DNA from: a phage | Reading direction: 5' to 3' (one strand) | NCBI GenBank assembly: GCA_032691205.1 | Contig: GCA_032691205.1_4541.1 | DNA: 64,000 bases | Shown: piece by piece, positions 1 through 32,228 of the stretch | How the letters are laid out: the number at the start of each line of letters is the position of its first letter | Position numbering within the stretch: the first letter of the stretch is position 1 | Notes under the pieces: model-generated | What the model was told of the DNA's origin: nothing | Databases searched by the model: none | The model's input: only the letters and a program-made list of their open reading frames with translations | Translations under genes and position numbers: made by a program

Positions 1-27
1 ATTAGTTAGGCTTTTTGTGATTTTCAT
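1..27 (-). CDS. hypothetical protein (5' end only; gene runs off the left edge)
   Basis: Minus-strand ATG at 25-27 just downstream of repeat unit 1 (49-104); weak RBS. Confidence 0.25.
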
Positions 28-48
28 GATTTTTCTCTCTTCTTGTGA

Positions 49-104
49 GCGGCACCATTGCCGCCCTACAAGATACATATTACCAGACTAAGCCGACTTG
101 TCAA
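49..104 (-). promoter_or_regulatory. early promoter + 5'-UTR hairpin unit 1
   Basis: Minus strand reads TTGACA-16nt-TAATAT, then hairpin GCGGCA-CCAT-TGCCGC (49-64), then RBS and ATG. Confidence 0.6.
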
Positions 105-216
105 ACTATTTTTTCTTTTTCTTTGCTTCCAACCGTCTAAGGTTACGGCTTGACTTATTGCGCAAGGCGCTTAGATCGTCGTACCCTTTCCATGCTTGCA
201 TATCTTTCGGATTCAT
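88..216 (-). CDS. hypothetical small basic protein (42 aa)
   Basis: Hand-translated minus ORF MNPKDMQAWKGYDD...; RBS AAGGGG before ATG at 216. Confidence 0.3.
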
Positions 217-225
217 GTTATCCCC

Positions 226-387
226 TTACTTGTTAGCCGGATTATATGCCAGGACCGCGCCGCTTGCTTTCACGCTTTCCGCTTCATAGTTGCGCAGATC
301 GTTTTCTGTAAGGTTGAGCGCGATCACTTCCTCGATCTCAACGTCAGCGGCAAGGGCGATCTCTTTGATAATGTCTGTTGTTTTCAT
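226..387 (-). CDS. hypothetical protein (53 aa)
   Basis: Hand-translated minus ORF MKTTDIIKEIALAADVEIEE...; below the 60-aa cutoff of the ORF track. Confidence 0.35.
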   Translation of the reverse strand: MKTTDIIKEIALAADVEIEEVIALNLTENDLRNYEAESVKASGAVLAYNPANK

Positions 388-397
388 AGTACGCACC

Positions 398-517
398 TTA
401 TAAGATGATTGATAAGATAGTGATAACGAAAGCGATTATACTGATGGCAAATGTCATCTTTTTACCTTCGGATACTGCCGGATTCTCTACCGTGTATTCT
501 ACTGTGTACTTGCTCAT
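398..517 (-). CDS. hypothetical small hydrophobic protein (39 aa)
   Basis: Minus ATG at 517 with RBS GAGAGGA, directly downstream of unit 2; hydrophobic C-terminus. Confidence 0.35.
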   Translation of the reverse strand: MSKYTVEYTVENPAVSEGKKMTFAISIIAFVITILSIIL

Positions 518-540
518 CGTGTAATCCTCTCGTTTGCTTT

Positions 541-596
541 GGGAACTATTCCCGCCGCCCTATGAATTAAATATACACTATCTCAAAATGATTGCA
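541..596 (-). promoter_or_regulatory. early promoter + 5'-UTR hairpin unit 2
   Basis: Hairpin GGGAA-CTA-TTCCC (541-553); minus-strand -10 TATATT and -35 TTGCAA. Confidence 0.5.
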
Positions 597-613
597 AGCC
601 TTTTTCTAAATTT

Positions 614-898
614 TTATGCAGTAAACAAACCATCATTTACAACGGCGGCGATGATCTCCCGCGCCATTGATTCAGGGAAAGGGGCGCTATAGTCCTGGCT
701 TGTCTCATCGGTATCAGTGATCCAATGATAAGCTAACGAGTAAAAGCCTTTACTAACTGTTTTCAGTGAGATGACGATCACTCGGTCAAGCTTATTGGTG
801 AATGTTGCCGTTAATGTGTTACCCTCCTGCGTCATGTTGGACAAGTAAGCGGGATCATTAATCAGGGAAAACATTAGCACGGTGTTAGCTTTACTCAT
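614..898 (-). CDS. hypothetical protein
   Basis: Track ORF 614..928 trimmed to the internal ATG at 898, which has RBS GAGGA and sits downstream of hairpin 3. Confidence 0.6.
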   Translation of the reverse strand: MSKANTVLMFSLINDPAYLSNMTQEGNTLTATFTNKLDRVIVISLKTVSKGFYSLAYHWITDTDETSQDYSAPFPESMAREIIAAVVNDGLFTA

Positions 899-918
899 GA
901 TTGCATCCTCAAAGGGGC

Positions 919-973
919 GCGGCACCATTGCCGCCCTACACGATAACTATAACACAATGTAAAACAGGATCAA
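919..973 (-). promoter_or_regulatory. early promoter + 5'-UTR hairpin unit 3
   Basis: Minus strand TTGATC-16nt-TATAGT, hairpin GCGGCA-CCAT-TGCCGC (919-934). Confidence 0.6.
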
Positions 974-1176
974 CCTTTATTTTTCCACGGTGTCAGCTTG
1001 TTAATCATTGGTGATAAATAGCGTTTACCAACGTAAAACAGCACGCCAACTGATGCAACGGCGGCGATCTCATGCATAGCCGACGGGAAACGGGTATCAT
1101 AATAAGATCCAATAATAGCAATAGCGGCAACGGCTGCAACGTCGATAATGATTTTTTCTTGTTTTGCGGTGATCAT
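970..1176 (-). CDS. hypothetical small membrane protein
   Basis: Track ORF trimmed to ATG at 1176 (RBS AAAAAGG) downstream of hairpin 4; hydrophobic segment IIIDVAAVAAIAIIG. Confidence 0.55.
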   Translation of the reverse strand: MITAKQEKIIIDVAAVAAIAIIGSYYDTRFPSAMHEIAAVASVGVLFYVGKRYLSPMINKLTPWKNKG

Positions 1177-1198
1177 AATATTTACCTTTTTGTATGGT

Positions 1199-1256
1199 GG
1201 GGGAACTATTCCCCGCCTGATGTAATACAGTTTAACAGGTCCGGTTATGGTGTCAA
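1199..1256 (-). promoter_or_regulatory. early promoter + 5'-UTR hairpin unit 4
   Basis: Minus strand TTGACA-16nt-TAAACT, hairpin GGGGAA-CTA-TTCCCC. Confidence 0.6.
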
Positions 1257-1262
1257 CCACTT

Positions 1263-1448
1263 TTAAAGATATTTTATACTGATAACGTTTTCCGGTTTAA
1301 CCTTGTTGTGATGTGCATCAACATAGATCAAACCATCGTCAGAAAAGCCCAGGATCACGCCCTGCGCAATAAAACCGTATTCGTCACGGTAACGCACGGC
1401 TATTTTTAACGTTGCGTTGTAGGCTGTTTTAAGCTCGCTTAAAGTCAT
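1263..1448 (-). CDS. hypothetical protein
   Basis: ORF 61 aa with RBS GAGGATAA before ATG at 1448. Confidence 0.5.
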   Translation of the reverse strand: MTLSELKTAYNATLKIAVRYRDEYGFIAQGVILGFSDDGLIYVDAHHNKVKPENVISIKYL

Positions 1449-1465
1449 CTTTGTTTATCCTCTAC

Positions 1466-1495
1466 ATGTAAAAAGAAAGGGCGCTTGGTGCGCCC
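1466..1495 (-). terminator. rho-independent terminator
   Basis: Hairpin GGGCGC-TTGGT-GCGCCC followed on the minus strand by TTTCTTTTT, directly after the stop of 1505..1651. Confidence 0.55.
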
Positions 1496-1504
1496 CTTAT
1501 TATG

Positions 1505-1651
1505 TTAATCCTCTAAATCCATCCAATTATATTTGTCACTCTTCCCGCGCTTTGTTTTATTGCGCTTGTCGCCTTTGCGGATCACTTCCTCGTTCCAGGC
1601 CTTGCGGATCTTGGAAGATTGAATTTTTTCTGCGCGATTAGATGTATTCAT
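1505..1651 (-). CDS. hypothetical small basic protein (48 aa)
   Basis: Hand-translated MNTSNRAEKIQSSKIRKAWNEEVIRKGDKRNK...; RBS GAGGAAA; between unit 5 and the terminator. Confidence 0.45.
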   Translation of the reverse strand: MNTSNRAEKIQSSKIRKAWNEEVIRKGDKRNKTKRGKSDKYNWMDLED

Positions 1652-1671
1652 TTTGTTTCCTCTTCATATGA

Positions 1672-1724
1672 GCGGCACCATTGCCGCTATATTGTTAATT
1701 TAAGCTGTTTTGTAAAATTGTCAA
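1672..1724 (-). promoter_or_regulatory. early promoter + 5'-UTR hairpin unit 5
   Basis: Minus strand TTGACA-16nt-TAAATT, hairpin GCGGCA-CCAT-TGCCGC. Confidence 0.6.
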
Positions 1725-1730
1725 GGTTTA

Positions 1731-2084
1731 TCATTCATAAGAGCAAGCAAGGATCACGCCTGCAATATAAAGCCAATAATTTTCCCTTTCTCGTTGGATT
1801 TTATCATCGCTGCTATTCTCTTTAATGTATCCCCAGGATGTTAACAAGCGATCAATTTCCCAATATTCGAAAGCGATATTGATATCTGATGGCAAACCTT
1901 GTAACCATGATGCAAGTGCTTTAACAATACTATAATTAAAACGTGATTGGTTATCAGGGTACCAGTACTCGGAATTAAAACGGCGCATCAATTCCGCGAT
2001 CTTCTCTTTTTCGGTTGTAATACCGTAATCATTAAAATCGATAGCGGCAAGTATGTACTCTTTAATTGCATTTTGTGCTTTCAT
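1731..2084 (-). CDS. hypothetical protein
   Basis: ORF 117 aa downstream of unit 6. Confidence 0.65.
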   Translation of the reverse strand: MKAQNAIKEYILAAIDFNDYGITTEKEKIAELMRRFNSEYWYPDNQSRFNYSIVKALASWLQGLPSDINIAFEYWEIDRLLTSWGYIKENSSDDKIQRERENYWLYIAGVILACSYE

Positions 2085-2103
2085 GGTCTTTCTCTCTTTT
2101 TGA

Positions 2104-2160
2104 GCGGGAACTATTCCCGCCCTACGTGTAACAGTTTACTAAAAATTAAATCGGTGTCAA
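2104..2160 (-). promoter_or_regulatory. early promoter + 5'-UTR hairpin unit 6
   Basis: Minus strand TTGACA-16nt-TAAACT, hairpin GCGGGAA-CTA-TTCCCGC. Confidence 0.6.
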
Positions 2161-2163
2161 GCT

Positions 2164-2385
2164 TTATTTTGTTACTACCATTTGGTACCCTGTTTCAATG
2201 TTAGTAAATACTGTTATTCCGTCCTGGCGTTCACTCATTAGCATACAAGGCGCTAACATCCTTTCTACTGCCTTGCACTCATTGTAAACGGCGGTTATGT
2301 CTCCTGCGGCCTTGTCTTCTGTGGTGAATGTATCGTTTACGTAAACCTGACCAGCGACAACGGCGACAATAGCGAAAGTGATCAT
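2164..2385 (-). CDS. hypothetical protein
   Basis: ORF 73 aa (MITFAIVAVVAG...). Confidence 0.6.
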   Translation of the reverse strand: MITFAIVAVVAGQVYVNDTFTTEDKAAGDITAVYNECKAVERMLAPCMLMSERQDGITVFTNIETGYQMVVTK

Positions 2386-2418
2386 GATGTTTCCTTGTTA
2401 GTAGTGGTTTCTCTTCTC

Positions 2419-2456
2419 TATAGCGCCCATTATAAGGCGCTATAACGAAAAGTCAA
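2419..2456 (-). promoter_or_regulatory. variant promoter with a palindrome over the -10
   Basis: Minus strand TTGACT-16nt-TATAAT; the -10 lies in the loop of a 9-bp palindrome TATAGCGCC/GGCGCTATA. Confidence 0.45.
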
Positions 2457-2459
2457 CGA

Positions 2460-2627
2460 TTATTTTTTAAGGCTTAAAGTACCTAACTTGTCAGCATGAC
2501 GCAGACCAGGGAAGATCCATTTTCCTGATTCATCTTTTACAGGGGCTTTAAGCGTAGCGCCCAGGTTGGCGGCGTTAACTTTACGGGCAACGTTGCGAGC
2601 GGCTTCACGGGTAGTAAAAGTGATCAT
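2460..2627 (-). CDS. hypothetical protein (55 aa)
   Basis: Hand-translated MITFTTREAARNVARKVNAANLG...; downstream of unit 7. Confidence 0.45.
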   Translation of the reverse strand: MITFTTREAARNVARKVNAANLGATLKAPVKDESGKWIFPGLRHADKLGTLSLKK

Positions 2628-2650
2628 GATGTTTTCCTCTTCTCTTTGTT

Positions 2651-2713
2651 AGGCGGTGGACCATTCCGCCGCCTTGATGTAATACAGTTTACTTTATTTT
2701 TGCAGTATTGCAA
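2651..2713 (-). promoter_or_regulatory. early promoter + 5'-UTR hairpin unit 7
   Basis: Minus strand TTGCAA-16nt-TAAACT; 10-bp hairpin AGGCGGTGGA-CCAT-TCCGCCGCCT with one G.U pair. Confidence 0.6.
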
Positions 2714-2718
2714 GCGTT

Positions 2719-2931
2719 TTATGAAATAATCGTCAAAGTAAAATTGTAATCACCTGATTGGTACAATACTTTATCACCGAACGTTCCAACACGTTTAACA
2801 TTGCAATATATACCCATAACACTTTTTACATCTTTGATATTCTTCACGCCTGTAATATCTTTATTAAAATGATCGTGATCAGAAAATAAAACTTGACTTG
2901 CATTTTTTAACAGTGTGCGGATATTAGCCAT
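2719..2931 (-). CDS. hypothetical protein
   Basis: ORF 70 aa downstream of unit 8. Confidence 0.6.
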   Translation of the reverse strand: MANIRTLLKNASQVLFSDHDHFNKDITGVKNIKDVKSVMGIYCNVKRVGTFGDKVLYQSGDYNFTLTIIS

Positions 2932-2956
2932 CGTGATAATCTCTCTTCTGTTGTGA

Positions 2957-3012
2957 GCGGCACTATTGCCGCCCTACGTAATACAGTTTACTCTTTTTCT
3001 TTCCCGTGTCAA
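2957..3012 (-). promoter_or_regulatory. early promoter + 5'-UTR hairpin unit 8
   Basis: Minus strand TTGACA-16nt-TAAACT, hairpin GCGGCA-CTAT-TGCCGC. Confidence 0.6.
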
Positions 3013-3021
3013 CAATCTTTT

Positions 3022-3249
3022 TCAGATTAATTCATCCAGGCATAACAGGCGATCAACGTTGAGATCGGTCAGGCTGATGGTTGGCACCTGGTAGGATTCG
3101 ATGTACTCGACGCTTGCATATTCCCCAAAATTAGCAATAGCCCACTTATTCAAGATCTCACATACATCATTAATCTTTTTGTTTGTTACAACTGCAATAA
3201 CCTGGGAAGTGCCAACGGTGCCGGATACGCGAACAATATTGATAGCCAT
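3022..3249 (-). CDS. hypothetical protein
   Basis: ORF 75 aa downstream of unit 9. Confidence 0.6.
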   Translation of the reverse strand: MAINIVRVSGTVGTSQVIAVVTNKKINDVCEILNKWAIANFGEYASVEYIESYQVPTISLTDLNVDRLLCLDELI

Positions 3250-3271
3250 AATCTTTAATCTCTCTGTTGTT

Positions 3272-3331
3272 GGCGGGAAACCACTTCCCGCCCTATGTGA
3301 TACATCTTACACTAATTTTAAACGTTGTCAA
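3272..3331 (-). promoter_or_regulatory. early promoter + 5'-UTR hairpin unit 9
   Basis: Minus strand TTGACA-16nt-TAAGAT, hairpin GGCGGGAA-ACCAC-TTCCCGCC. Confidence 0.6.
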
Positions 3332-3340
3332 CTGTTTTTA

Positions 3341-3580
3341 TTACATTCCAACCATCGCGGCGCGGATCGCAGTTTTACTATACTTAAAGCCGTCTGGCGT
3401 TGTAGTGATTCCATCCTGTTTCAAACGGTAGCACATTAAATCAGCCGCCTGATCTTTATTACCGCACTCATTGATCAATCCCAATGCAAACCGATACAAT
3501 CCCTCATCGTTATTAATCCACAGGCTTACATTCCAATGAGTTTTGTTTTTGTGACCGTTGTACATTTTAGATTTAGCCAT
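3341..3580 (-). CDS. hypothetical protein
   Basis: ORF 79 aa downstream of unit 10. Confidence 0.6.
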   Translation of the reverse strand: MAKSKMYNGHKNKTHWNVSLWINNDEGLYRFALGLINECGNKDQAADLMCYRLKQDGITTTPDGFKYSKTAIRAAMVGM

Positions 3581-3603
3581 GATTTTTCTCTCTTTTTCAG
3601 TGA

Positions 3604-3662
3604 GGCGGGAAGTGTTCCCGCTCTCTATGTAATACAGTTTACTCTTTTTATTCGTGCTGTCA
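3604..3662 (-). promoter_or_regulatory. early promoter + 5'-UTR hairpin unit 10
   Basis: Minus strand TTGACA-16nt-TAAACT, hairpin GCGGGAA-GTG-TTCCCGC. Confidence 0.6.
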
Positions 3663-3669
3663 ATGCTTT

Positions 3670-4023
3670 TTATAAATCTTTTTTACGTTTTACATCGCTT
3701 GCATGACTGTATACAGCGATCCCATTATCACGACAAAAACGGGTAAGGTATGATCCGCGTGAAAACTCTTTCCCTTCCAGGTCAACAACCTTGCTAAATT
3801 CTTCCAGGGCAACGGTATCAAAATGATCACCATAACCATATTGAAACGGCACGTTAACAACTTCAATCAATTTACCGCCGATCTCAACGTCCACGCTTAA
3901 AGAAAAATATGTGTTACCGTAGGACTGTTGAAACCAGCGACGGGCGCTAATGTGAACGGCTTCAATCTCACCAATTTTAAATTGAGTGTTACCCAGGATC
4001 GCAACGTTGATATTTTTAGCCAT
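3670..4023 (-). CDS. hypothetical protein
   Basis: ORF 117 aa downstream of unit 11. Confidence 0.65.
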   Translation of the reverse strand: MAKNINVAILGNTQFKIGEIEAVHISARRWFQQSYGNTYFSLSVDVEIGGKLIEVVNVPFQYGYGDHFDTVALEEFSKVVDLEGKEFSRGSYLTRFCRDNGIAVYSHASDVKRKKDL

Positions 4024-4048
4024 GATTTTTTCTCTCTTTTTGGTTAGT

Positions 4049-4100
4049 GGGAAGTGTTCCCGATAAAAGTTATTATGCTTATACTATCGTTTTTTGTCAA
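4049..4100 (-). promoter_or_regulatory. early promoter + 5'-UTR hairpin unit 11
   Basis: Minus strand TTGACA-17nt-CATAAT, hairpin GGGAA-GTG-TTCCC. Confidence 0.55.
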
Positions 4101-4119
4101 TAGTATAAGACTAAAACTT

Positions 4120-4299
4120 TTAACGATAATCGTCGTAGGCTTTATTAACCTGGCGAATATAACATTCGAAAGCGAGATCAATAGAATCATATTCCCGCAC
4201 ATAATCCCCGTAAGAAACTACATACACACCTTTTTGATCCTCAAACGTCATGATGATAGAATCCAGGCCGATGATTTCAGTTTTAGCGATGATAGTCAT
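4120..4299 (-). CDS. hypothetical protein (about 59 aa)
   Basis: Hand-translated MTIIAKTEIIGLDSIIMTFEDQKG...; downstream of unit 12. Confidence 0.45.
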   Translation of the reverse strand: MTIIAKTEIIGLDSIIMTFEDQKGVYVVSYGDYVREYDSIDLAFECYIRQVNKAYDDYR

Positions 4300-4320
4300 A
4301 ATAATAACCTTTTTATTGTT

Positions 4321-4377
4321 GGCGGCACCATTGCCGCCCTACGTGATAAACTATACCAGAATTTTAAACAGTGTCAA
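4321..4377 (-). promoter_or_regulatory. early promoter + 5'-UTR hairpin unit 12
   Basis: Minus strand TTGACA-16nt-TATAGT, hairpin GGCGGCA-CCAT-TGCCGCC. Confidence 0.6.
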
Positions 4378-4387
4378 ACGTTTTTTC

Positions 4388-4633
4388 TTAGTTTGCGAAA
4401 TATGGCGCGGCGGCTGATGCCGTTAATCTCCAAGTGATTTGGCTATCGATCAAGTATTCTTCATTCTTGATCCGCACGGTATCAATCGAGAAGTTACTGA
4501 AAGGCTTGCTCTTGATTTTACGAACAACCGTTACACGACGGTTATTTTTCATCTCTTTTAACTGAATCCAGGCGTAACCTTTTTCATTGACAAATATTTC
4601 ATTGTGATTGGTGATAGATGATAAGTGTTTCAT
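4388..4633 (-). CDS. hypothetical protein
   Basis: ORF 81 aa downstream of unit 13. Confidence 0.6.
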   Translation of the reverse strand: MKHLSSITNHNEIFVNEKGYAWIQLKEMKNNRRVTVVRKIKSKPFSNFSIDTVRIKNEEYLIDSQITWRLTASAAAPYFAN

Positions 4634-4656
4634 GATTTGTTTCTCTTCTGTTTTGA

Positions 4657-4716
4657 GCGGTGGACCATTCCGCCGCCCTATGTGTTACATCTTACTACTT
4701 TTTTAAACATTGTCAA
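4657..4716 (-). promoter_or_regulatory. early promoter + 5'-UTR hairpin unit 13
   Basis: Minus strand TTGACA-16nt-TAAGAT, hairpin GCGGTGGA-CCAT-TCCGCCGC. Confidence 0.6.
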
Positions 4717-4724
4717 GGATATTT

Positions 4725-5006
4725 TTAACTATATGATCCACATCGTTCGCAGTAGTGATCATCGTCGTCATCTGCTACCTGGCTGATAAAATGATCTACC
4801 TTTGCTTTCAAATTATTATAATTGCTTTCTACTTCCTGTAGTCGTCGTTGGTAGTATTCCAGGGCTTGCACATAGGCCATTTGTTCGGTTTTAGCTTGCA
4901 CAGCTAAATTCATGCCGCGCGTTTCATCGTATAACCAATAACCATCATTACATTCACTAATAGATAGTGTAGGGCTTAGTTTTTCGTGACGGATAACCTT
5001 GCTCAT
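4725..5006 (-). CDS. hypothetical protein
   Basis: ORF 93 aa. Confidence 0.6.
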   Translation of the reverse strand: MSKVIRHEKLSPTLSISECNDGYWLYDETRGMNLAVQAKTEQMAYVQALEYYQRRLQEVESNYNNLKAKVDHFISQVADDDDDHYCERCGSYS

Positions 5007-5016
5007 GGTGTGCCCC

Positions 5017-5124
5017 TTACTTCAAAATGATTGTTGTGATAACTGCTACGGTGATCCAAAATGGAACGGCTAGAATGATAGCGTTAATCGTTCCAACCGT
5101 CAAACTATTTCCTTTATTAATCAT
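5017..5124 (-). CDS. hypothetical small membrane peptide (about 35 aa)
   Basis: Hand-translated MINKGNSLTVGTINAIILAVPFWITVAVITTIILK; RBS AAGAGG; downstream of unit 14. Confidence 0.35.
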   Translation of the reverse strand: MINKGNSLTVGTINAIILAVPFWITVAVITTIILK

Positions 5125-5153
5125 TGTAAGCCTCTTGCATAATTTCACTATGA

Positions 5154-5210
5154 GCGGCACCATTGCCGCCCTACGTGGTAAATATTATGCCAGTGGCGGC
5201 GATATGTCAA
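5154..5210 (-). promoter_or_regulatory. early promoter + 5'-UTR hairpin unit 14
   Basis: Minus strand TTGACA-17nt-TAATAT, hairpin GCGGCA-CCAT-TGCCGC. Confidence 0.6.
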
Positions 5211-5773
5211 AGACTATTTTCAAAGTTTTCTAGTGCGATCCTTTTTTCTTCCTCTGTCGGCTGATAATCAGGAAAAGCATCAACACACAACAACGGCGGG
5301 ATCTCTTCGTACTCTTCCTCTTCCGTTGTCTCCTCGTCTTCCTCCTGGGCTATGGCTGCAATTTTGGCTAATTTTCTTTCAGCTTGAATCAATTTACCAT
5401 CAAGTACGTTTTTTGCCATGTTGTAAGCGGTCCAGGTGATGCGCTTACTTTCCAGGGCCTGATCGAGCGCCGCTATCTTGCTGGGGTATTCATCCAGGAC
5501 ACGAAAAGCCGGATCAACTTTGTACAAAGGATTATCTTTCGCGCCGTCGCTCGCATCTTCCGCACTGGATAAATCAGCGTTACCATTTGCCAGCCAGCCA
5601 GGGCGCACATAACGCGCTTTTACGTTGCCGTTACTACGTGCTAATCTGTTACCTATTTGCTCACCGCTATATCCCGTGGATTCATCGATAAGATGATCGG
5701 GAATGATGCGCGGATCATCTGCTTCATGTTTTACCCAAGACTGGATCACATATTCGCGGCCCATATTAACCAC
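5207..5773 (-). CDS. hypothetical protein with acidic C-terminal tract
   Basis: ORF 188 aa; EEDEETTEEEEYEE tract. Confidence 0.65.
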   Translation of the reverse strand: MVNMGREYVIQSWVKHEADDPRIIPDHLIDESTGYSGEQIGNRLARSNGNVKARYVRPGWLANGNADLSSAEDASDGAKDNPLYKVDPAFRVLDEYPSKIAALDQALESKRITWTAYNMAKNVLDGKLIQAERKLAKIAAIAQEEDEETTEEEEYEEIPPLLCVDAFPDYQPTEEEKRIALENFENSL

Positions 5774-6023
5774 CTTTTTTCAACAATTGGCATACTTTAA
5801 AAAGACTTGCTGAATCCTTGCAAGGGTAGAAAGATGTACGATAATCACGTACGCCAACCTTGCGGATCTCGATGTTCTCGCATGTTGTTTGATCAAAGAT
5901 ATTTATTTCATCACGCCCCCTTATATAAACATAGTGGGGATGTATTAACGCATATTTTGCTAATCTGTAAAAAGCGTTATCTTTGAACGCGATCACGTGA
6001 CCTTTTAATTTGATGTAAAACAT
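5766..6023 (-). CDS. hypothetical protein
   Basis: ORF 85 aa downstream of unit 15. Confidence 0.6.
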   Translation of the reverse strand: MFYIKLKGHVIAFKDNAFYRLAKYALIHPHYVYIRGRDEINIFDQTTCENIEIRKVGVRDYRTSFYPCKDSASLFKVCQLLKKGG

Positions 6024-6041
6024 TCTACCACCTTACAAATA

Positions 6042-6096
6042 GCGGGAACTATTCCCGCTTTATGTAACATATTAACAAATTATTCGTTAATGTCAA
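6042..6096 (-). promoter_or_regulatory. early promoter + 5'-UTR hairpin unit 15
   Basis: Minus strand TTGACA-16nt-TAATAT, hairpin GCGGGAA-CTA-TTCCCGC. Confidence 0.6.
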
Positions 6097-6099
6097 GCC

Positions 6100-6372
6100 T
6101 TAAAGCAAAAACGCTACATCTTGCGCTTTTAGTGTAGTATCAACCATTTTCGGGCTTTTATAATCAACAAAGCGCGCGGTTTTTTCAATAGCGAAACCGA
6201 GATAATCTTGCTTGTTGAAATTACATTCTTTCTTAAATGTTTCCCGTGCAATGGCAATCGCTGCGTCCAGGGATAAACGCCCGTCAATATTGATATTAGC
6301 GAAAGATCCGCCACCGCTCATAGGTTTACCAGTTGTGCCAGCTACGATCATTGTTGCGCTATATGATGCCAT
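6100..6372 (-). CDS. hypothetical protein
   Basis: ORF 90 aa downstream of unit 16. Confidence 0.6.
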   Translation of the reverse strand: MASYSATMIVAGTTGKPMSGGGSFANINIDGRLSLDAAIAIARETFKKECNFNKQDYLGFAIEKTARFVDYKSPKMVDTTLKAQDVAFLL

Positions 6373-6397
6373 GATGATAATCTCTCTTCTGTTACGA

Positions 6398-6456
6398 GCG
6401 GGAAACCACTTCCCGCCCTATGTGATACATCTTATCAGGTTGTTGTTTGTTGTCAA
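6398..6456 (-). promoter_or_regulatory. early promoter + 5'-UTR hairpin unit 16
   Basis: Minus strand TTGACA-16nt-TAAGAT, hairpin GCGGGAA-ACCAC-TTCCCGC. Confidence 0.6.
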
Positions 6457-6462
6457 TACTTT

Positions 6463-6660
6463 TTATTCTATCCCTGCAATTTGATTAACGCGCTTGCATT
6501 TTGTAGCGTGCTGGTCTTCTGTAATGACTCCCATTTCTAACAGGGAATCAATGAAAGATAAAACCGTTTCATGATCATCCTGGGGATGACTGAACTCAGT
6601 AAAACCGTTTACTATTACGTTGATTTGTCCAGCTTTCGCCACAATGTGCAATGTTGCCAT
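6463..6660 (-). CDS. hypothetical protein
   Basis: Track ORF 6463..6750 trimmed to the ATG at 6660 downstream of hairpin 17. Confidence 0.55.
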   Translation of the reverse strand: MATLHIVAKAGQINVIVNGFTEFSHPQDDHETVLSFIDSLLEMGVITEDQHATKCKRVNQIAGIE

Positions 6661-6681
6661 GATCTTAACTCCAAATAGTGA

Positions 6682-6738
6682 GCGGCACCATTGCCGCGCT
6701 ACGTGGTAAATATTATGCCGCCACCTGGCGAACGTCAA
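6682..6738 (-). promoter_or_regulatory. early promoter + 5'-UTR hairpin unit 17
   Basis: Minus strand TTGACG-17nt-TAATAT, hairpin GCGGCA-CCAT-TGCCGC. Confidence 0.6.
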
Positions 6739-6847
6739 CCACTTTTTCAATCTTTTTTATTTTCTTTTTGCTTGCTATATATAAAGGAAAGGGTTATCAT
6801 CTTTCTACCGCGCCAACCAGGGCGCACAACAAAGAAAGGGCGACACC

Positions 6848-7114
6848 ATGACAAATACTACATTACATCTTATGCACTCATTGGGCTGGCAAGGCGGCAC
6901 GGTGCACCAGGTAGCAAGCGCAACGGGCTTAAAGGTTGAAACCGTTCTCAACCTATCAGATTATAAGGTCGAGGATAGTTATCAATTACAAAGTTACACG
7001 GGCGGTTTTACCTGGGCGCGTGAAGGTGGGAAAGAAAGCAATATACCACATTGGGGAAAAGGTGATATTCATTTTTGGCTAGGTGTCCTGACCTGGCAAG
7101 AAAACAAAAAATAA
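6848..7114 (+). CDS. hypothetical protein
   Basis: ORF 88 aa on the plus strand with RBS GAAAGGG; first rightward ORF after the leftward array. Confidence 0.4.
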   Translation: MTNTTLHLMHSLGWQGGTVHQVASATGLKVETVLNLSDYKVEDSYQLQSYTGGFTWAREGGKESNIPHWGKGDIHFWLGVLTWQENKK

Positions 7115-7116
7115 TC

Positions 7117-7145
7117 TTGACAAGCCCAGGGATAGGGCTTATACT
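7117..7145 (+). promoter_or_regulatory. sigma70-like promoter firing into the ORF-free region
   Basis: TTGACA (7117-7122), 17 nt, TATACT (7140-7145). Confidence 0.5.
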
Positions 7146-7376
7146 GTTTTACATACAGAAGAGGAAGCGCCACCCCACGGCGTAAAGGCGGGGCTAACAT
7201 ACCAGGGGCACTGGTTGGAAGGTTGATCGCCGGTAGGCTGGGCGCTATATATTTGTAAAGAAATGTAAAGATAAAATAATCGCTTGCTTTCCTGGCTGGA
7301 TCTGTTATTCTTATTACATGGCGAGGGGACACGGGAGCGCGAGACAAACACCGCCCCTGCGCGTCATTCTCTAAAT

Positions 7377-7395
7377 GAGAATGATTATCATTTAC
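7377..7395. promoter_or_regulatory. Fur-box-like palindrome
   Basis: GAGAATGATTATCATTTAC matches 15 of 19 positions of the Fur consensus GATAATGATAATCATTATC; related palindromes at 7365-7383, 7435-7453, 7463-7483. Confidence 0.3.
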
Positions 7396-7502
7396 CTTAT
7401 CAAATAAGAATAAATCTCATTTATAAACTTAAATGCGAATCATTATCATTTGCATTTCCATATGAGAACTCTTCTCATTCTCACCTGCATAAAAATTTTT
7501 GT

Positions 7503-7560
7503 AAACTTTAAATTTTGCTTTTGTACTTTCATTTTTGTAAAAGCAAAAAAACTTTAAATA
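7503..7560. repeat. direct repeat copy A (~58 bp)
   Basis: AAACTTTAAATTTTGCTTTTGTACTTTCATTTTTGTAAA...AAACTTTAAATA; second copy at 7640-7697. Confidence 0.6.
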
Positions 7561-7639
7561 CTGTGGGCGCGCAAAATTTTTAAAATTTTCCTTGACTTTT
7601 GAGTTTTGTTTTGTATCTAACATTTTAAGATAATTTTCC

Positions 7640-7697
7640 TAAACTTTAAATTTTGGTTTTCAACTTTCACTTTTGTAAATTCTTAAAAAGTTTAAAT
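7640..7697. repeat. direct repeat copy B (~58 bp)
   Basis: AAACTTTAAATTTTGGTTTTCAACTTTCACTTTTGTAAA...AAAGTTTAAATA; imperfect copy of 7503-7560. Confidence 0.6.
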
Positions 7698-7840
7698 AAT
7701 TTGAGGGATTTTTGAGATAATGGATAGTGGGAATTTGATATAACCTTTAATCTTATTAGTAGACCTTCAGGAACCCACCTAGATCGAATCCTAGTGATGC
7801 AAACTGAAAAAGATAAGTGTTTGTATAGGACAAAATAACA

Positions 7841-7874
7841 GGCTCTCTACGGTGCTGTAGGAGCCTTATTTCTG
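7841..7874. terminator. bidirectional rho-independent terminator
   Basis: Hairpin GGCTC(T)CTAC-GGTGCT-GTAGGAGCC flanked by T-runs on both strands; just downstream of the NADAR gene stop. Confidence 0.5.
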
Positions 7875-7921
7875 TGCTACAAAGTGACACCTTTGTTCTA
7901 AAAATGAAAAAAGTTAAAATA

Positions 7922-8464
7922 TCACAAATATCGTCTTTGCGGTATTTTGTCTGGGAAAAGTATTTCGATCAGTTTATTATGATATTTGCCTAAAAGATTC
8001 TGCCCTTTCCAGGTGGCAGGGTTTAGCACCCCTGGTTCATACATCCCCATTCCAATTCCGTAAACCTTATCGTAGGGGCTTGCTTCAACAAACGTTTTGT
8101 ATTGGTAAAGGTGTAAGTCTGCATACAAATCTGGATTCTGTACATATTTCAAGCATAAACCTCGCATAACAATACGCTCACGGTTCTCTTCCCATACATT
8201 GTTATCAAAATCCGACACTGCCCTACCCATACGTTTGTAATAAGCTTGGATCTTCTCATCTTTCCGTATCAAACTATGAGTCAGAATAGCCTGTGCAGTG
8301 TTGTGGTCATTAAAAAGCAAAGCTTTACGCCACATCATATATTGTTCGACACAATTAAATGTCTGATTGTAACCTGGTTCGGTTTCTGTAAAGGGTGCAA
8401 TATACCAATTACTAAAAACATCTTTATGTGAAAAGAAGAATACATAATCATCAGTTATTCGCAT
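7922..8464 (-). CDS. NADAR-domain protein (YbiA/DUF1768-like)
   Basis: 180 aa; motifs FFFSHKDVFSNWY, EQYMMWRKALLF, FDNNVWEENRERIVMRGLCLKYVQNPDL, GIGMGMYEPG read as NADAR family. Confidence 0.65.
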   Translation of the reverse strand: MRITDDYVFFFSHKDVFSNWYIAPFTETEPGYNQTFNCVEQYMMWRKALLFNDHNTAQAILTHSLIRKDEKIQAYYKRMGRAVSDFDNNVWEENRERIVMRGLCLKYVQNPDLYADLHLYQYKTFVEASPYDKVYGIGMGMYEPGVLNPATWKGQNLLGKYHNKLIEILFPDKIPQRRYL

Positions 8465-12067: not shown

Positions 12068-12232
12068 CTATTCCCACAACATACAAATCGCAGCGACAAA
12101 CATATTAGCAATAGCCGCACCAAGAACTATAAACATCGCCAGTTCTGAACAATATTCACCAACCAGAGGGGATACTATTGCACAAAGTAGTCCCAATGTC
12201 AAACACAAATTGATGATGAAGTTTAAAATCAT
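12068..12232 (-). CDS. hypothetical small membrane protein (54 aa)
   Basis: Hand-translated MILNFIINLCLTLGLLCAIVSPLVGEY...; RBS AGGAGA. Confidence 0.35.
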   Translation of the reverse strand: MILNFIINLCLTLGLLCAIVSPLVGEYCSELAMFIVLGAAIANMFVAAICMLWE

Positions 12233-12241
12233 ATTCTCTCC

Positions 12242-12433
12242 TTACAACCAACCCTTTGCCCGGTAGCCTTTAGAAAATCCATCTTCCCATTCTTCGAATT
12301 CCTTTTTGTGTGTCTTTGGACAATATGGATTTACTTTATTAAACATACCAAACTTGAACCCTGCGGTATACCCTTTCTTAAAAGCTATTGATTCTAAAGA
12401 GATCATATTCTTTCTCCTCTTAGAACTCGACAA
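12242..12433 (-). CDS. hypothetical protein
   Basis: ORF 63 aa. Confidence 0.5.
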   Translation of the reverse strand: MSSSKRRKNMISLESIAFKKGYTAGFKFGMFNKVNPYCPKTHKKEFEEWEDGFSKGYRAKGWL

Positions 12434-12671
12434 TGATTTTGTCTAAGTGTTCTGCTTCAACTTGGGATAATGTTAACACCTGCACCAAACCTCTGTCAAT
12501 GCCTAATTTGATCACTTGCAAATAATCACCGAAAAGATCAGAGATTTCAATCTGGTGTTCAGTAACCACCACGACCTCGTTACCCTTGGTATACTCTCTC
12601 CAGATTCGTCCACACTTGTAAATGAAATCTTTCTGGTCTTCACTGATCATCTTAGGCTTAACGCTTAACAT
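12420..12671 (-). CDS. hypothetical protein
   Basis: ORF 83 aa. Confidence 0.55.
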   Translation of the reverse strand: MLSVKPKMISEDQKDFIYKCGRIWREYTKGNEVVVVTEHQIEISDLFGDYLQVIKLGIDRGLVQVLTLSQVEAEHLDKIIVEF

Positions 12672-14730: not shown

Positions 14731-14758
14731 TTGACATACTTTTTAATCTTGTTAAGAT
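14731..14758 (+). promoter_or_regulatory. sigma70-like promoter for the rightward block
   Basis: TTGACA (14731-14736), 16 nt, TAAGAT (14753-14758). Confidence 0.6.
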
Positions 14759-14788
14759 CAACTCCTACCAAACAAAAGGAGAAAACAA

Positions 14789-15232
14789 ATGCAAAACATC
14801 CAAAACATCAAACTGACTTGGCCCGAAGCTAAAGAAGCAATGAAGGAAGGTAGACGTGTTGAGCACCGCCATTTTTGTGGTGGCGAATGGTTTGAGATGC
14901 GAGATGGTGTTATTCTCGACGAACAAGGTTATAACATGGAAACTTGGTTCAGAGGGGAAGCTTGGCAGGAAGAGGGTTGGTCTGTAATTGAAAAAGAGGA
15001 CAGTAAGGAAGAAGGCGTGTTGTCTAATGTAGAACGCGAGGTGAGGGAAACAAAGACACCTGTTTTGGATTTTGTATACCTGGAAGAACTTGTGGCAGCA
15101 TCTTTTGTAGCAGGAAACCTTTGGAATACACCTGTTAGCCGACTGGAGAACCAAAATAACCCGTCTGCTCGTAATCACAAGCTTTATAAGGGTAAAGGTC
15201 ACAACAAATTAAAGAAAGGAAAGAAGAAATGA
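14789..15232 (+). CDS. hypothetical protein
   Basis: ORF 147 aa, RBS AAAGGAGAA. Confidence 0.65.
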   Translation: MQNIQNIKLTWPEAKEAMKEGRRVEHRHFCGGEWFEMRDGVILDEQGYNMETWFRGEAWQEEGWSVIEKEDSKEEGVLSNVEREVRETKTPVLDFVYLEELVAASFVAGNLWNTPVSRLENQNNPSARNHKLYKGKGHNKLKKGKKK

Positions 15233-15375
15233 TCTACAAAAACAAGTTCACTGGTTGTCTCCGTAAATTTATCGATAAGAAAGGGTTTGTTTCTCTTGAC
15301 AACGGGGTTACATGGACAGAGAATGGCACTTCAGAACAGTTAATCAAAGCTTTGCCTTACTACGAGGAGGTTTAA
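15229..15375 (+). CDS. hypothetical protein (48 aa)
   Basis: ATGA overlap with the upstream stop; MIYKNKFTGCLRKFIDKKGF... Confidence 0.4.
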   Translation: MIYKNKFTGCLRKFIDKKGFVSLDNGVTWTENGTSEQLIKALPYYEEV

Positions 15376-15699
15376 ATGTCAAACAGTCTGTTTAGCGTGT
15401 CAATTGCACCACGTGTCAATATCCGTTGTCAGTTTGTTACTTTACCTGGTGTAACGCATATCACATTAGAATACGATCCTCGCTCACGAGACAACCCAAT
15501 CACAGGGAAAATTGATTGTGCTTATGGTGATTTTGTTATGGATCACCAAACCATCTTATGCTGTGTGCAACGCTTACAGGCAGGATCTTTATACATCTTT
15601 AAGAAAACTGTGTTCCAAGAGATTGCTCAAGCAGTTGAAAGTGGTATGGAGACTCTTAACGCTATGATTGAAGCAGCCAACAAGAAGGAGGTTTTATGA
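15376..15699 (+). CDS. hypothetical protein
   Basis: ORF 107 aa, RBS GAGGAGG. Confidence 0.65.
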   Translation: MSNSLFSVSIAPRVNIRCQFVTLPGVTHITLEYDPRSRDNPITGKIDCAYGDFVMDHQTILCCVQRLQAGSLYIFKKTVFQEIAQAVESGMETLNAMIEAANKKEVL

Positions 15700-15956
15700 C
15701 ACTTTATCACGTAACTACAGAAGGCGACTGTGAAGGCCGCACTACAAAAGATTTGGGGTATGTTGAAGCAGATTCACCTGAACATGCTATCAAATACCTG
15801 CATTCCATCGGGAAGTATGCGGGTTATGAGTATACTATCTACGAGGTTGAAATTATTAACCTTATACAAGTGGCAACTCCTATGGCAGAGTTGAAACATC
15901 TTAAGGCAAAAGTAAGACCTGGTATAGTGTCCGATTACAAAGGGGAAGTAAAGTGA
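15696..15956 (+). CDS. hypothetical protein
   Basis: ORF 86 aa, overlapping stop/start. Confidence 0.6.
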   Translation: MTLYHVTTEGDCEGRTTKDLGYVEADSPEHAIKYLHSIGKYAGYEYTIYEVEIINLIQVATPMAELKHLKAKVRPGIVSDYKGEVK

Positions 15957-16165
15957 GTGGATGGATTAAAGTATCTGGTACTGAGGATGTTCCTATCGGA
16001 GAGTGGCTTGTAATCATGGCAAACGGCAAGAAGGGATTCTGTGAAGTTAACAAAACACGCAATGGCACGATAGCTGTTATCAATGGTCATTTTTATTTTG
16101 ACTTGGCACCTGTGATCGCATACCATGAACTACCAACATATGAAGAGGAGATTAACAATGGCTAA
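15953..16165 (+). CDS. hypothetical protein
   Basis: ORF 70 aa. Confidence 0.55.
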   Translation: MSGWIKVSGTEDVPIGEWLVIMANGKKGFCEVNKTRNGTIAVINGHFYFDLAPVIAYHELPTYEEEINNG

Positions 16166-16475
16166 CAAAGAACCACATGTATATACTGCACTGGTAAAAC
16201 ATTTGAACAAAGAACGTAACAGGATCATTGCAGATTATCGTAAATTTAAACGTAGTAGTCTAAATCGTAAATACATGCCACATGCAGCTTTTGACGCTAC
16301 ACGTGCAGTGTTTCGTGCAAAGATTGCGGAAATGGATAATCTGCTTAAGCTTGCACGATTATCTATTCAGGCATCCAAAGTAACAGGGGTCACTCACTTC
16401 TTTGACTTCGATACTAAAGCACTATATGCACCAGAAGCAGGTGAACAATTGATTTATCTACTTACCAAAAAATAA
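16158..16475 (+). CDS. hypothetical protein
   Basis: Start set at MANKEPHVY with RBS GAGGAG. Confidence 0.55.
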   Translation: MANKEPHVYTALVKHLNKERNRIIADYRKFKRSSLNRKYMPHAAFDATRAVFRAKIAEMDNLLKLARLSIQASKVTGVTHFFDFDTKALYAPEAGEQLIYLLTKK

Positions 16476-16651
16476 GTGTTGACTTTTTTCAAAAAATATG
16501 CTACCCTAACCCCGAAGGGTCGAGCGATAGCGAGTATAGATTATGTAATAGATTAATCTCTATCGTTAGATGTTCGAAGAACAGAGATTTAAGTACTTGT
16601 TCTTATCGGTAGATGATCGTAAGATCAAGAACAATAATAGGAGAGTGTGTT

Positions 16652-31177: not shown

Positions 31178-31236
31178 TTGACATAGTTCTTAAAAAGAGT
31201 AAGATATATCACATGAAGCGGGGAATAGTTCCCCGC
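31178..31236 (+). promoter_or_regulatory. early-type promoter + 5'-UTR hairpin unit (only plus-strand copy), upstream of terC
   Basis: TTGACA-16nt-TAAGAT then hairpin GCGGGGAA-TAG-TTCCCCGC (31218-31236), RBS AGAGGAGAA. Confidence 0.6.
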
Positions 31237-31253
31237 AAAGAGAGGAGAAAAGA

Positions 31254-32228
31254 ATGCAACTCGGTTTCCCAATTATTGATGTAGTTGTTTTAGTTGGTAT
31301 TTTAGCATTGTCTATTGGTATCGATTTCTTTGGTCATAAAGAGAATAAAGAAATTGGAATTAAATCTGCTTTGCTTTGGTCTGTTTTTTGGATTGCTTTA
31401 GCTTTAGGGTATTACGCATTCATTTGGGTAGAACATGGTAAAGAGTTTGCCGCGCTTTTCCTAAGTGGCTATGTGTTGGAAAAGAGTCTTTCTGTAGATA
31501 ACCTAATGGTGTTCATGGCAATTTTTGCAAGCTTTGGAATTAAGAGCACACATCTCCAACATAAGATTCTACTTTGGGGGATTGCAGGAGCCATTGTCTT
31601 CCGAGGTATTTTTGTTGCAGCAGGGACCGCTTTGTTTAACCTTCATTGGTCGGTCCAAGTGTTGTTCGGTTTGATTGTAGCTTGGTCTGCCGTGGCTATC
31701 ATCAAAGGTGGTGACGAAGAAGAGGATATTGATTACTCTAAACATTGGGCTGTTCGTTTAGTAGGTAAAGTTCTGCCTGTGCACAATGCACTGGATGGTG
31801 AAAAGTTCATCACCATTAAGAATGGTATTAAATATGCAACTCCTGCTCTTCTTTGTGTGTTTGTTATTGAGCTTACAGATATTGTCTTCTCTTTTGATTC
31901 AGTTCCGGCTGTGATCGGTGTGACACAAGAACCTCTGCTAGTTTATTCTGCAATGCTGATGGCTGTTCTTGGTTTACGTGCACTTTTCTTTGTGTTAAGT
32001 GTAGCTGTGAAATATCTGGTTCACTTAGAGAAAGCTGTTGCTGTGGTTCTGGTGTTTGTTGGTGCTAAACTTATGTATCACCCGTTCGGTGAAACACTTC
32101 ATGCCAAGTGGTCATTCCTCCCGCATGATATTTCCCCTAACGTAAGTCTGATGATTGTTCTAGGCACATTATCTCTTGGTGTTATTGCAAGCTTTATCTT
32201 CCCTGAAAAAGAAGAAGCTACTGTTTAA
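31254..32228 (+). CDS. terC: TerC-family integral membrane protein
   Basis: 324 aa multi-pass; conserved LEKSLSVDNLMVF and ELTDIVFSFDSVPAVIGV. Confidence 0.65.
   Translation: MQLGFPIIDVVVLVGILALSIGIDFFGHKENKEIGIKSALLWSVFWIALALGYYAFIWVEHGKEFAALFLSGYVLEKSLSVDNLMVFMAIFASFGIKSTHLQHKILLWGIAGAIVFRGIFVAAGTALFNLHWSVQVLFGLIVAWSAVAIIKGGDEEEDIDYSKHWAVRLVGKVLPVHNALDGEKFITIKNGIKYATPALLCVFVIELTDIVFSFDSVPAVIGVTQEPLLVYSAMLMAVLGLRALFFVLSVAVKYLVHLEKAVAVVLVFVGAKLMYHPFGETLHAKWSFLPHDISPNVSLMIVLGTLSLGVIASFIFPEKEEATV

Follow-up and report, generated by a model that had tools for sequence, protein, structure and literature searches.

The closest described systems to the locus analysed here are the promoter-early stem-loop (PeSL) cassettes of the T4-like phages RB49/phi1, PST/T4 and nt-1/KVP40 (Arbiol 2010, PMC2839356; Comeau 2014, PMC4122927). 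PeSLs are repeated intergenic cassettes of about 70–100 bp, each combining an A/T-rich stretch and a strong early promoter of the sigma-70 type with a G+C-rich stem-loop, a Shine-Dalgarno sequence and an ATG; they cluster in front of small genes without a known function in a hyperplastic region, and are found at the junctions of insertions, deletions and replacements between related phages. All of these traits recur in an array of cassettes on the minus strand (27-6738) of a 64,000-nucleotide stretch of phage DNA, hereafter the window (GenBank assembly GCA_032691205.1, contig GCA_032691205.1_4541.1). In PeSLs, however, the stem-loop precedes the promoter, sits between its -35 and -10 boxes or covers the -10 box, and it acts as a terminator (PMC2839356, PMC4122927), while here the hairpin follows the -10 box, occupying about +4 to +25 of the cassette's own transcript, and is not followed by a U-tract. 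The PeSL placement was absent from 17 of the 18 array units; only unit 2456 (units are named here by the start of their -35 box), with a hairpin over its -10 box, has the geometry described for RB49 PeSLs. The carriers also differ, being T4-like phages in the case of PeSLs and members of Stephanstirmvirinae and Vequintavirinae here.

Stabilising 5' stem-loops of E. coli mRNAs, those of ompA and papA, were reportedly described by Emory, Bouvet and Belasco in 1992. Secondary structure at the 5' end stabilises E. coli mRNAs because RppH and RNase E need single-stranded 5' termini, which the ompA and papA hairpins deny to both enzymes (review PMC3997798). As in these mRNAs, a stable hairpin a few nucleotides (nt) from the predicted 5' end, upstream of and separate from the ribosome-binding site (RBS), characterises the array units. 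The ompA and papA elements, however, are single gene-specific leaders whose effect was shown by experiment, whereas here one hairpin family covers an early regulon and the effect on decay is a prediction; the predicted unpaired tail of 2–5 nt is at the upper limit for protection. The arrangement of the genes also recalls the host-takeover module of Bacillus phage SPO1, an early-gene array that Stewart et al. are said to have described in 1998. In both, small early genes are densely packed near a genome terminus and each, or nearly each, has a strong host-type promoter; there is no sequence relationship, and we know of no conserved 5' hairpin described for the SPO1 module.

Reading by eye and scanning revealed 18 sigma-70-type units in the array, in keeping with the at least 17 early promoters counted in an earlier note made from the sequence alone. 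The layout given in that note also holds, namely a TTGACA-like box, 16–17 nt, a TAnnnT box, about 10 nt, a hairpin, an RBS (purine-rich in these units) and ATG, and the plus-strand copy it had placed at 31178-31236 indeed precedes a terC gene (Pfam TerC, E=3e-40). A promoter scan of positions 1-7300 found 41 promoter-like sites against 19.2 ± 4.4 in shuffled sequences. A strong G+C-rich hairpin of -11 to -16 kcal/mol is present in 14 of the 18 units, a decayed one with a remnant stem of 5–6 bp in three (4100, 597 and 1256), and none downstream of the promoter in unit 2456. Among the 18 predicted 5' untranslated regions (UTRs) with a downstream hairpin (17 array units and the terC unit), 12 had a fold z of -2.7 or lower. 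A covariance model built from eight copies found no match in the window outside the array and the terC unit. The genes of the array, a presumed early region, matched only PHROG families of unknown function.

Selection has kept both the pairing and the position of the hairpin across Phapecoctavirus, Justusliebigvirus (phi92) and Vequintavirus (FV3). For the analysis of pairing, 61 distinct hairpins were taken from the window, NC_052654, phi92, FV3, four further Phapecoctavirus genomes and five IMG/VR loci; the arms were justified from the stem base and padded with N, and MAFFT left this alignment ungapped. MAFFT alignments of the units were discarded because differing stem lengths caused the 3' arms to be mis-registered, and a covariance-model alignment was not used for counts, since it mixed both strands of the palindromes. 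The shuffle counts that follow are not probabilities, because detected helices served to build the alignment and the copies are sequence-exchanging paralogues: standard pairs filled 89.1% of cells versus 76.9 ± 0.9% in column shuffles (0 of 500 reached the observed value), both-side changes occurred at 8 of 11 stem pairs (3 of 500 shuffles), and the cells with both-side changes numbered 63 versus 23.0 ± 3.6 (0 of 500). The covariation score was 0.280 versus 0.125. Sliding the 3' partner by 1–3 columns reduced pairing to 66% or less, and re-dealing whole 3' arms gave 70.0 ± 1.0% paired versus 81.7% observed.

The alleles GGGCGGCA/UGCCGCUC, GGCGGGAA/UUCCCGCC, GGCGGGAAA/UUUCCCGCC, GGGGCG/CGCCCC, GGGGC/GCCCC and GGGGAGAA/UUCUCCCC all pair, the last differing by two double changes from the terC copy, GCGGGGAA/UUCCCCGC. 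The stem GGCGGUGG/CCACCGCC has U-A where GGCGGCGGA/UCCACCGCC has a C.A mismatch, and a 3-nt expansion is mirrored in the two arms (GGGCGG-CGG... / ...CCA-CCGC). The co-variation of stems proposed in the earlier note is thus borne out, and the compensatory changes, whose loss upon proper alignment it had named as a refutation, are seen in the stem-base alignment. Its statement that the stems always pair goes too far; the GGCGGCGGA/UCCACCGCC type carries C.A on the mRNA strand (G.T on the plus strand), three units retain only 5–6 bp and unit 2456 has no downstream stem. The selection on structure at the 5' end of early mRNAs that it suggested agrees with both the excess of pairing and the fixed place of the hairpin near the predicted 5' end.

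This place was determined by aligning 116 distinct cassettes on the -10 box. The -35 box, the -10 box and an upstream A/T-rich patch are conserved, as are a stretch after the -10 box (GUAUCACAUAG, approximately GUAUCAC followed by AUAG) and the subsequent 5' arm GGGCGG, while the promoter spacer of 16–17 nt carries about 0 bits. The base of the helix falls at the 10th–12th nt after the -10 box in 115 of 139 copies, including copies with a different intervening sequence. Transcription usually starts 7–8 nt after the -10 box, at a purine following a pyrimidine, and the predicted hairpin start at +4 rests on this usual spacing. The predicted transcripts open with pppAUA or pppGUA, directly followed by the stem; the 5' tail would be 0–4 nt if the start is the 8th nt after the -10 box, and up to about 6 nt if it lies two positions upstream. 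Of the 17 array units whose hairpin follows the promoter, 16 have it at about +1 to +5 through +16 to +28 relative to the predicted start, and it stops 14–27 nt short of the AUG. The exception in this fold is unit 973, where a second small hairpin stretches the structured region to +32, 8 nt before the AUG. In phi92 (L112, 14345-14390), the predicted transcript of one unit begins with AUCGAGAG, which matches the T7 A1 transcript in its first eight bases; the likeness may be due to chance or to an initially transcribed sequence favouring promoter escape.

A different account of the same copies would treat the hairpin as a passenger without a function of its own, carried along by a promoter cassette that was spread by duplication and homogenised by gene conversion. 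In its favour, the copies are plainly paralogues that exchange parts, one and the same gene can have a different hairpin type from phage to phage, and three copies in the window are decayed. On the other hand, the spacer has diverged to about 0 bits while pairing was kept by both-side changes, the 3-nt expansion is matched in both arms, and the hairpin has held its position where the sequence upstream of it changed. The randomised spacer within the same cassettes speaks against recent copying alone as the source of the conservation, and we regard a functionless passenger as very unlikely.

The distances within the leader bear on two functions proposed in the earlier note, an RNase III processing site and translational control, taken here as hiding of the RBS. 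RNase III does cut T7 early mRNAs at intercistronic hairpins, which speaks for the first of these, but this enzyme needs about 20 bp (about two helical turns) and the stems here have 5–10 bp. As for the second, 13–27 nt separate the end of the hairpin from the AUG, and folding predicts a largely unpaired Shine-Dalgarno region (mean unpaired probability 0.4–0.95), so that the hairpin is separate from an accessible RBS, as in ompA-type leaders. In 15 of the 17 array units that have a hairpin downstream of the promoter, it also remains in the minimum-energy fold when 38 nt of coding sequence are added to the leader. Either function appears extremely improbable.

The sequence following the hairpins is informative about another alternative, in which they are intrinsic terminators or attenuators that stop read-through from upstream, or stop their own transcript unless an antiterminator acts. 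The G+C-rich stems of 6–10 bp with loops of 3–6 nt do resemble terminators, and in MZ726793 (phage ASO2A; the annotated hairpins are in L119, 146000-151660, and L118) nearly every unit is annotated as a 'promoter' followed 10 nt on by a 'rho-independent terminator predicted by WebGeSTer'. The paper on this phage only counts the terminators. Furthermore, the RB49 PeSL stem-loop lowered lacZ expression about as much as rrnB T1 (PMC2839356), and the hairpin of unit 6096 (6059-6041) is followed by AUUUGU, its counterpart being flagged by TransTermHP too. However, the PeSL stem-loops are located upstream of or inside the promoter, unlike those described here. A/C-rich sequence of the CUCACAACAGAAGAG type follows the hairpins (CUCACAAC, CAACAAC or CUCAAAA) instead of a U-tract. 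On the minus (coding) strand, the terminator scan flagged none of the cassette hairpins, and the only site that qualified was the genuine terminator at 1498-1476, the sole canonical one within the array, with a 9-pair stem including 6 G-C pairs (AAGGGGCGC-ACCAA-GCGCCCUUU) followed by CUUUUU. An efficient terminator in the leader would also abort the gene's own mRNA at about +25 to +30, because the hairpin is downstream of the gene's only promoter. We therefore consider termination or attenuation quite unlikely, and the terminator labels in MZ726793 are probably a software artefact. The gene next after the terminator at 1498-1476 (1263-1448) has no promoter cassette.

Whether the structure acts as RNA or as DNA was approached through the wobble pairs. 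G.U cells number 31, mostly at the two outer pairs, against about 20 A.C/C.A cells. In 42 of 61 copies, folding gives a more stable structure in the mRNA sense than in the antisense (mean -13.7 versus -13.1 kcal/mol; Wilcoxon p=0.018). We take the hairpin in RNA to be the most likely active form. A DNA-level element could be a palindromic operator at +4 to +25, where lacO1-type operators sit, or a cruciform or single-stranded DNA hairpin used in replication or by a structure-specific recombinase, similar to integron attC sites. The wobble evidence for the RNA strand is weak, the cassettes are located at recombination junctions, and two phi92-like contigs share the stem GGCGGUGG/CCACCGCC with a 6-nt loop that is reverse-complemented, AAUAGC in L050 (about 4275-4300, minus strand) versus GCUAUU in L061 (about 664-689, plus strand), which is a flip of the palindrome at the DNA level. 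However, the spacing of the conserved GCGG and CCGC half-sites is not constant (10, 11, 13 or 14 nt) and some alleles (GGGGCG, GGGGAGAA) replace the half-sites altogether, making a dimeric sequence-specific DNA-binding protein a poor fit. Arms of 6–10 bp are short for cruciform extrusion, no recombinase gene adjoins the array, and the bias towards the sense fold also speaks for RNA. A role of the palindrome as DNA thus seems to us a rather improbable alternative.

If the hairpin acts as RNA, it could be a recognition element for a phage or host protein controlling the whole early regulon, such as a factor for antitermination or pausing, a repressor of translation or a shut-off endonuclease; lambda N with boxB and T4 RegA or RegB are comparable examples. 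One structured element occurs at the same place in some 20–30 co-expressed leaders, the flanking AUAG and the 5' arm GGGCGG are conserved beyond the needs of pairing, and stability is confined to a fairly narrow range (mean -13.7, sd 2.1 kcal/mol). In addition, many 3' arms read CGCUCAUA or CGCUCGUA, matching lambda boxA (CGCUCUUA; boxA consensus CGCUCUUUA) at 7 of 8 positions. Nevertheless, the loops vary freely (AUGG, AUAG, UAG, CAC, GUGGU, ACAAG, AAUAAG) and the upper stem changes in sequence and length, which leaves no constant surface for recognition of the loop by its sequence; CCGCC takes the place of CGCUC in about half of the copies, and no candidate binding protein was identified. 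Recognition by a regulatory protein is, in our view, unlikely. A lambda nut/rrn-type antitermination site was rejected, given that CGCUC lies within the stem without a U-run, that about half of the copies have CCGCC and that the loops vary; the boxA likeness was judged coincidental on the same grounds. We likewise assign a low probability to a broader proposal, that the hairpin is a structure-read signal of the whole early regulon, acting as a handle for a factor that switches the early mRNAs together by antitermination, pausing or shut-off, or else an attC-like structure-specific recombination site making each small gene mobile.

The explanation we favour, with moderate confidence, is that the hairpin is a 5'-terminal stem-loop limiting the access of RppH and RNase E, and that the repeated promoter/leader cassette containing it doubles as a recombination junction; an RNase E block was among the functions put forward in the earlier note. 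The array is a family of paralogous early-gene cassettes, each combining an A/T-rich upstream element, a near-consensus sigma-70 promoter, a conserved transcribed stretch, a stem-loop, a purine-rich Shine-Dalgarno sequence and the start codon (ATG) of a small gene whose function is not known. Transcription by host RNA polymerase would start about 8 nt after the -10 box, and each early mRNA would open with 2–5 unpaired nt followed by a stem of about -14 kcal/mol. The hairpin would leave RppH and RNase E without the single-stranded 5' end that they require, and 5'-end-dependent decay would be slowed; early mRNAs would be longer-lived, and their expression would be made uniform by a context-independent leader leaving the RBS untouched. 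The cassette of about 80 nt, being repeated before nearly every gene, could at the same time act as a homology patch for the insertion, deletion, swapping and re-ordering of genes within and between phage subfamilies.

Several points, in addition to the limit on the shuffle counts given above, weigh against 5'-terminal protection. E. coli RppH needs at least 2 unpaired nt and prefers 3 or more. The same requirement and preference are reported for Bacillus RppH. The predicted tail of 3–5 nt is thus borderline, and protection may be partial. Scanning RNase E easily bypasses orthogonal stem-loops (PMC9943677). In transcripts reading through from upstream units, the hairpin is internal and could at most be a 3' barrier after cleavage. 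The link between the hairpin and the 5' end is not absolute, because three of the 18 units are decayed and a related hairpin, GGCGGGAUUAAUCCCGCC, lies right after a stop codon with no promoter upstream (L001, 21054-21023, minus strand; also in L116 and L117). In the frequent GGCGGCGGA type it is the antisense strand that carries the wobble, and the counts of G.U versus A.C leave the strand undecided. Finally, the literature searched on these phages contained no data on transcription start sites, half-lives or 3' ends.

T4 Srd stimulates RNase E. The idea that such stimulation created a need for 5' protection was dropped, as no Srd homologue was present in the window or the compared loci. In the rV5 paper, gp11 is called 'Srd-like'; the Srd-like matches listed (178 more records were unlisted) came from Vequintavirus and from more remote rV5-like phages of Klebsiella, Salmonella, Cronobacter and Erwinia, and none of those listed was a Phapecoctavirus.

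The part of the favoured explanation that concerns recombination was addressed by aligning the window to eight related loci. Of 25 distinct breakpoints, 17 fall within 10 nt of a cassette, while cassettes and their margins make up 26.6% of the array (binomial 1.8e-5). The gene at 6100-6372 carries the GGCGGGAA hairpin, and its orthologue in NC_052654 carries GGCGGCGGA instead. In FV3 (L113), a 1.9-kb segment (14736-16597) consists of gene-plus-cassette modules that are 77–98% identical to phi92-like and Phapecoctavirus loci but arranged in a different order, and these patches end at cassettes. Such a mosaic indicates that early genes have been exchanged between phage subfamilies, FV3 belonging to a different one. 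Selection for intact genes would by itself place breakpoints at gene boundaries, which counts against assigning them to the cassettes; because this selection gives the same pattern, the breakpoints are consistent with cassette-mediated exchange rather than proof of it.

The window region is 94–96% identical to Phapecoctavirus genomes in a database sequence comparison, and by this similarity it is a phAPEC8-like coliphage of the genus Phapecoctavirus (Stephanstirmvirinae), a group with genomes of about 150 kb. The array runs out of the window at its left end; about 4 kb more of it is present in the relative NC_052654, and the homologous array of phi92 reaches the right terminal repeat. A search with a 63-nt cassette query returned 153 phage records, from Phapecoctavirus, Justusliebigvirus (phi92) and Vequintavirus (FV3, slur16), most of which hold several copies; the cassettes are paralogues common to this phage and to phi92-like and rV5-like phages, a point missed in the earlier note, as were their place at recombination junctions and their likeness to the published PeSLs. 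The same query had no match in 5,426 complete E. coli genomes, which excludes a host-derived repeat. In IMG/VR, two pattern scans found multi-copy matches only in contigs of 137–153 kb from these lineages and in one 97-kb contig, and the 110 pattern matches were mostly single chance matches. One contig that came up by chance, L015, is unrelated, G+C-rich and 279 kb long; at 12190-12440 it has about 14 tandem AAACTTGACGC-like iterons, and two promoter-like repeats, nearly identical to each other, lie downstream of them. No Rfam family matched the window at the gathering score, and a literature search found neither a description of these hairpins in rV5-, phi92- or phAPEC8-like phages nor a transcriptome. 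Records named as 'Campylobacter phage' (B15, A145, C15 and others) and 'Acinetobacter phage vB_AbaM_ABPW7' are 95–99% identical to these coliphages, and their host labels look doubtful.

The units of the array are given below in order of descending coordinates on the minus strand, each running from the first position of its -35 box to the position given for its ATG. Unit 1 has TTGACG at 6738-6733, TAATAT at 6715-6710, the hairpin GCGGCA/UGCCGC with loop AUGG at 6697-6682 and ATG 6660. In unit 2, the -35 box at 6456-6451 and TAAGAT at 6434-6429 are followed by GGGCGGGAA/UUCCCGCUC with loop GUGGU at 6418-6396 and ATG 6372 (z -2.99), and in unit 3 the boxes at 6096-6091 and 6074-6069 (TAATAT) are followed by AGCGGGAA/UUCCCGCU with loop UAG at 6059-6041 and ATG 6023 (z -2.75). 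Unit 4 (-35 at 5210-5205, TAATAT at 5187-5182) has GGGCGGCA/UGCCGCUC with loop AUGG at 5171-5152 and ATG 5124. Unit 5 (-35 at 4716-4711, TAAGAT at 4694-4689) has GGGCGGCGGA/UCCACCGCUC, with a C.A mismatch and loop AUGG, at 4678-4655 and ATG 4633 (z -3.94). Unit 6 (-35 at 4377-4372, TATAGT at 4355-4350) contains GGCGGCA/UGCCGCC at 4338-4321 and ATG 4299 (z -3.23), while the decayed hairpin of unit 7 (-35 at 4100-4095, CATAAT at 4077-4072) is reduced to GGGAA/UUCCC at 4061-4049, with -5.5 kcal/mol, before ATG 4023. Unit 8 (-35 at 3663-3658, TAAACT at 3641-3636) has GAG-A-GCGGGAA/UUCCCGC-CUC with loop CAC at 3625-3602 and ATG 3580 (z -4.48), and unit 9 (-35 at 3331-3326, TAAGAT at 3309-3304) has GGCGGGAA/UUCCCGCC with loop GUGGU at 3292-3272 and ATG 3249 (z -4.10).

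In unit 10, the boxes at 3012-3007 and 2990-2985 (TAAACT) precede GGGCGGCA/UGCCGCUC with loop AUAG at 2974-2955 and ATG 2931 (z -4.66). Unit 11 has TTGCAA at 2713-2708, TAAACT at 2691-2686, AGGCGGCGGA/UCCACCGCCU with a C.A mismatch at 2674-2651 and ATG 2627 (z -3.86). The odd unit 12 has TTGACT at 2456-2451, and its TATAAT at 2434-2429 lies in the loop of an 8-bp hairpin, AUAGCGCC/GGCGCUAU, at 2443-2420, with ATG 2385 (fold -20.9 kcal/mol, z -5.09). Unit 13 (-35 at 2160-2155, TAAACT at 2138-2133) has GGGCGGGAA/UUCCCGCUC with loop UAG at 2122-2102 and ATG 2084 (z -4.34); unit 14 (-35 at 1724-1719, TAAATT at 1702-1697) has AGCGGCA/UGCCGCU with loop AUGG at 1688-1671 and ATG 1651 (z -3.01). The weakened hairpin of unit 15 (-35 at 1256-1251, TAAACT at 1234-1229) is located at 1217-1196, with the core GGGGAA/UUCCCC, and is followed by ATG 1176. 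Unit 16 has TTGATC at 973-968, TATAGT at 951-946, GGGCGGCA/UGCCGCGCC at 936-916 and ATG 898, and unit 17 has TTGCAA at 597-592, TATATT at 575-570, the decayed hairpin GGGAA/UUCCC at 553-541 and ATG 517. Unit 18 (-35 at 104-99, TAATAT at 82-77) carries GGGCGGCA/UGCCGCUC with loop AUGG at 66-47 and ATG 27 (z -5.40). The solitary terC unit on the plus strand (31178-31256) comprises TTGACA at 31178-31183, TAAGAT at 31200-31205, GCGGGGAA/UUCCCCGC with loop UAG at 31218-31236 and ATG 31254 (z -4.05), and was matched by the covariance model at 31210-31240.

Directly upstream of the array is about 800 nt of A/T-rich, gene-free DNA (7120-7900), flanked by a divergent promoter, TTGACA-17-TATACT, at 7117-7145 (plus strand) and by a NADAR-domain gene at 7922-8464 (minus strand). 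It contains repeated AAACTTTAAAT and TTTTGTAAA motifs at about 7500-7700. An unannotated gap occupies this position in the relatives too and is labelled 'non-coding' in the rV5 paper; an origin or a group of phage-specific promoters may lie here.

Taken from its sequence, the element resembles a PeSL in which the hairpin has been moved into the 5' UTR, and the function proposed for this promoter-hairpin cassette is plausible. The database annotation of these hairpins as terminators would be corrected, and they are a candidate for a new RNA family, of which each genome holds dozens of copies and which includes natural compensatory variants. The PeSL idea, of regulatory cassettes as recombination linkers, would be extended beyond T4-like phages to cassettes with another internal layout. 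If the 5' hairpin indeed stabilises and equalises early mRNAs, it would provide a compact natural module of a promoter plus a stabilising leader for expression design, and a large lytic coliphage would be shielding its host-takeover transcripts from 5'-end-dependent decay with one reusable part.

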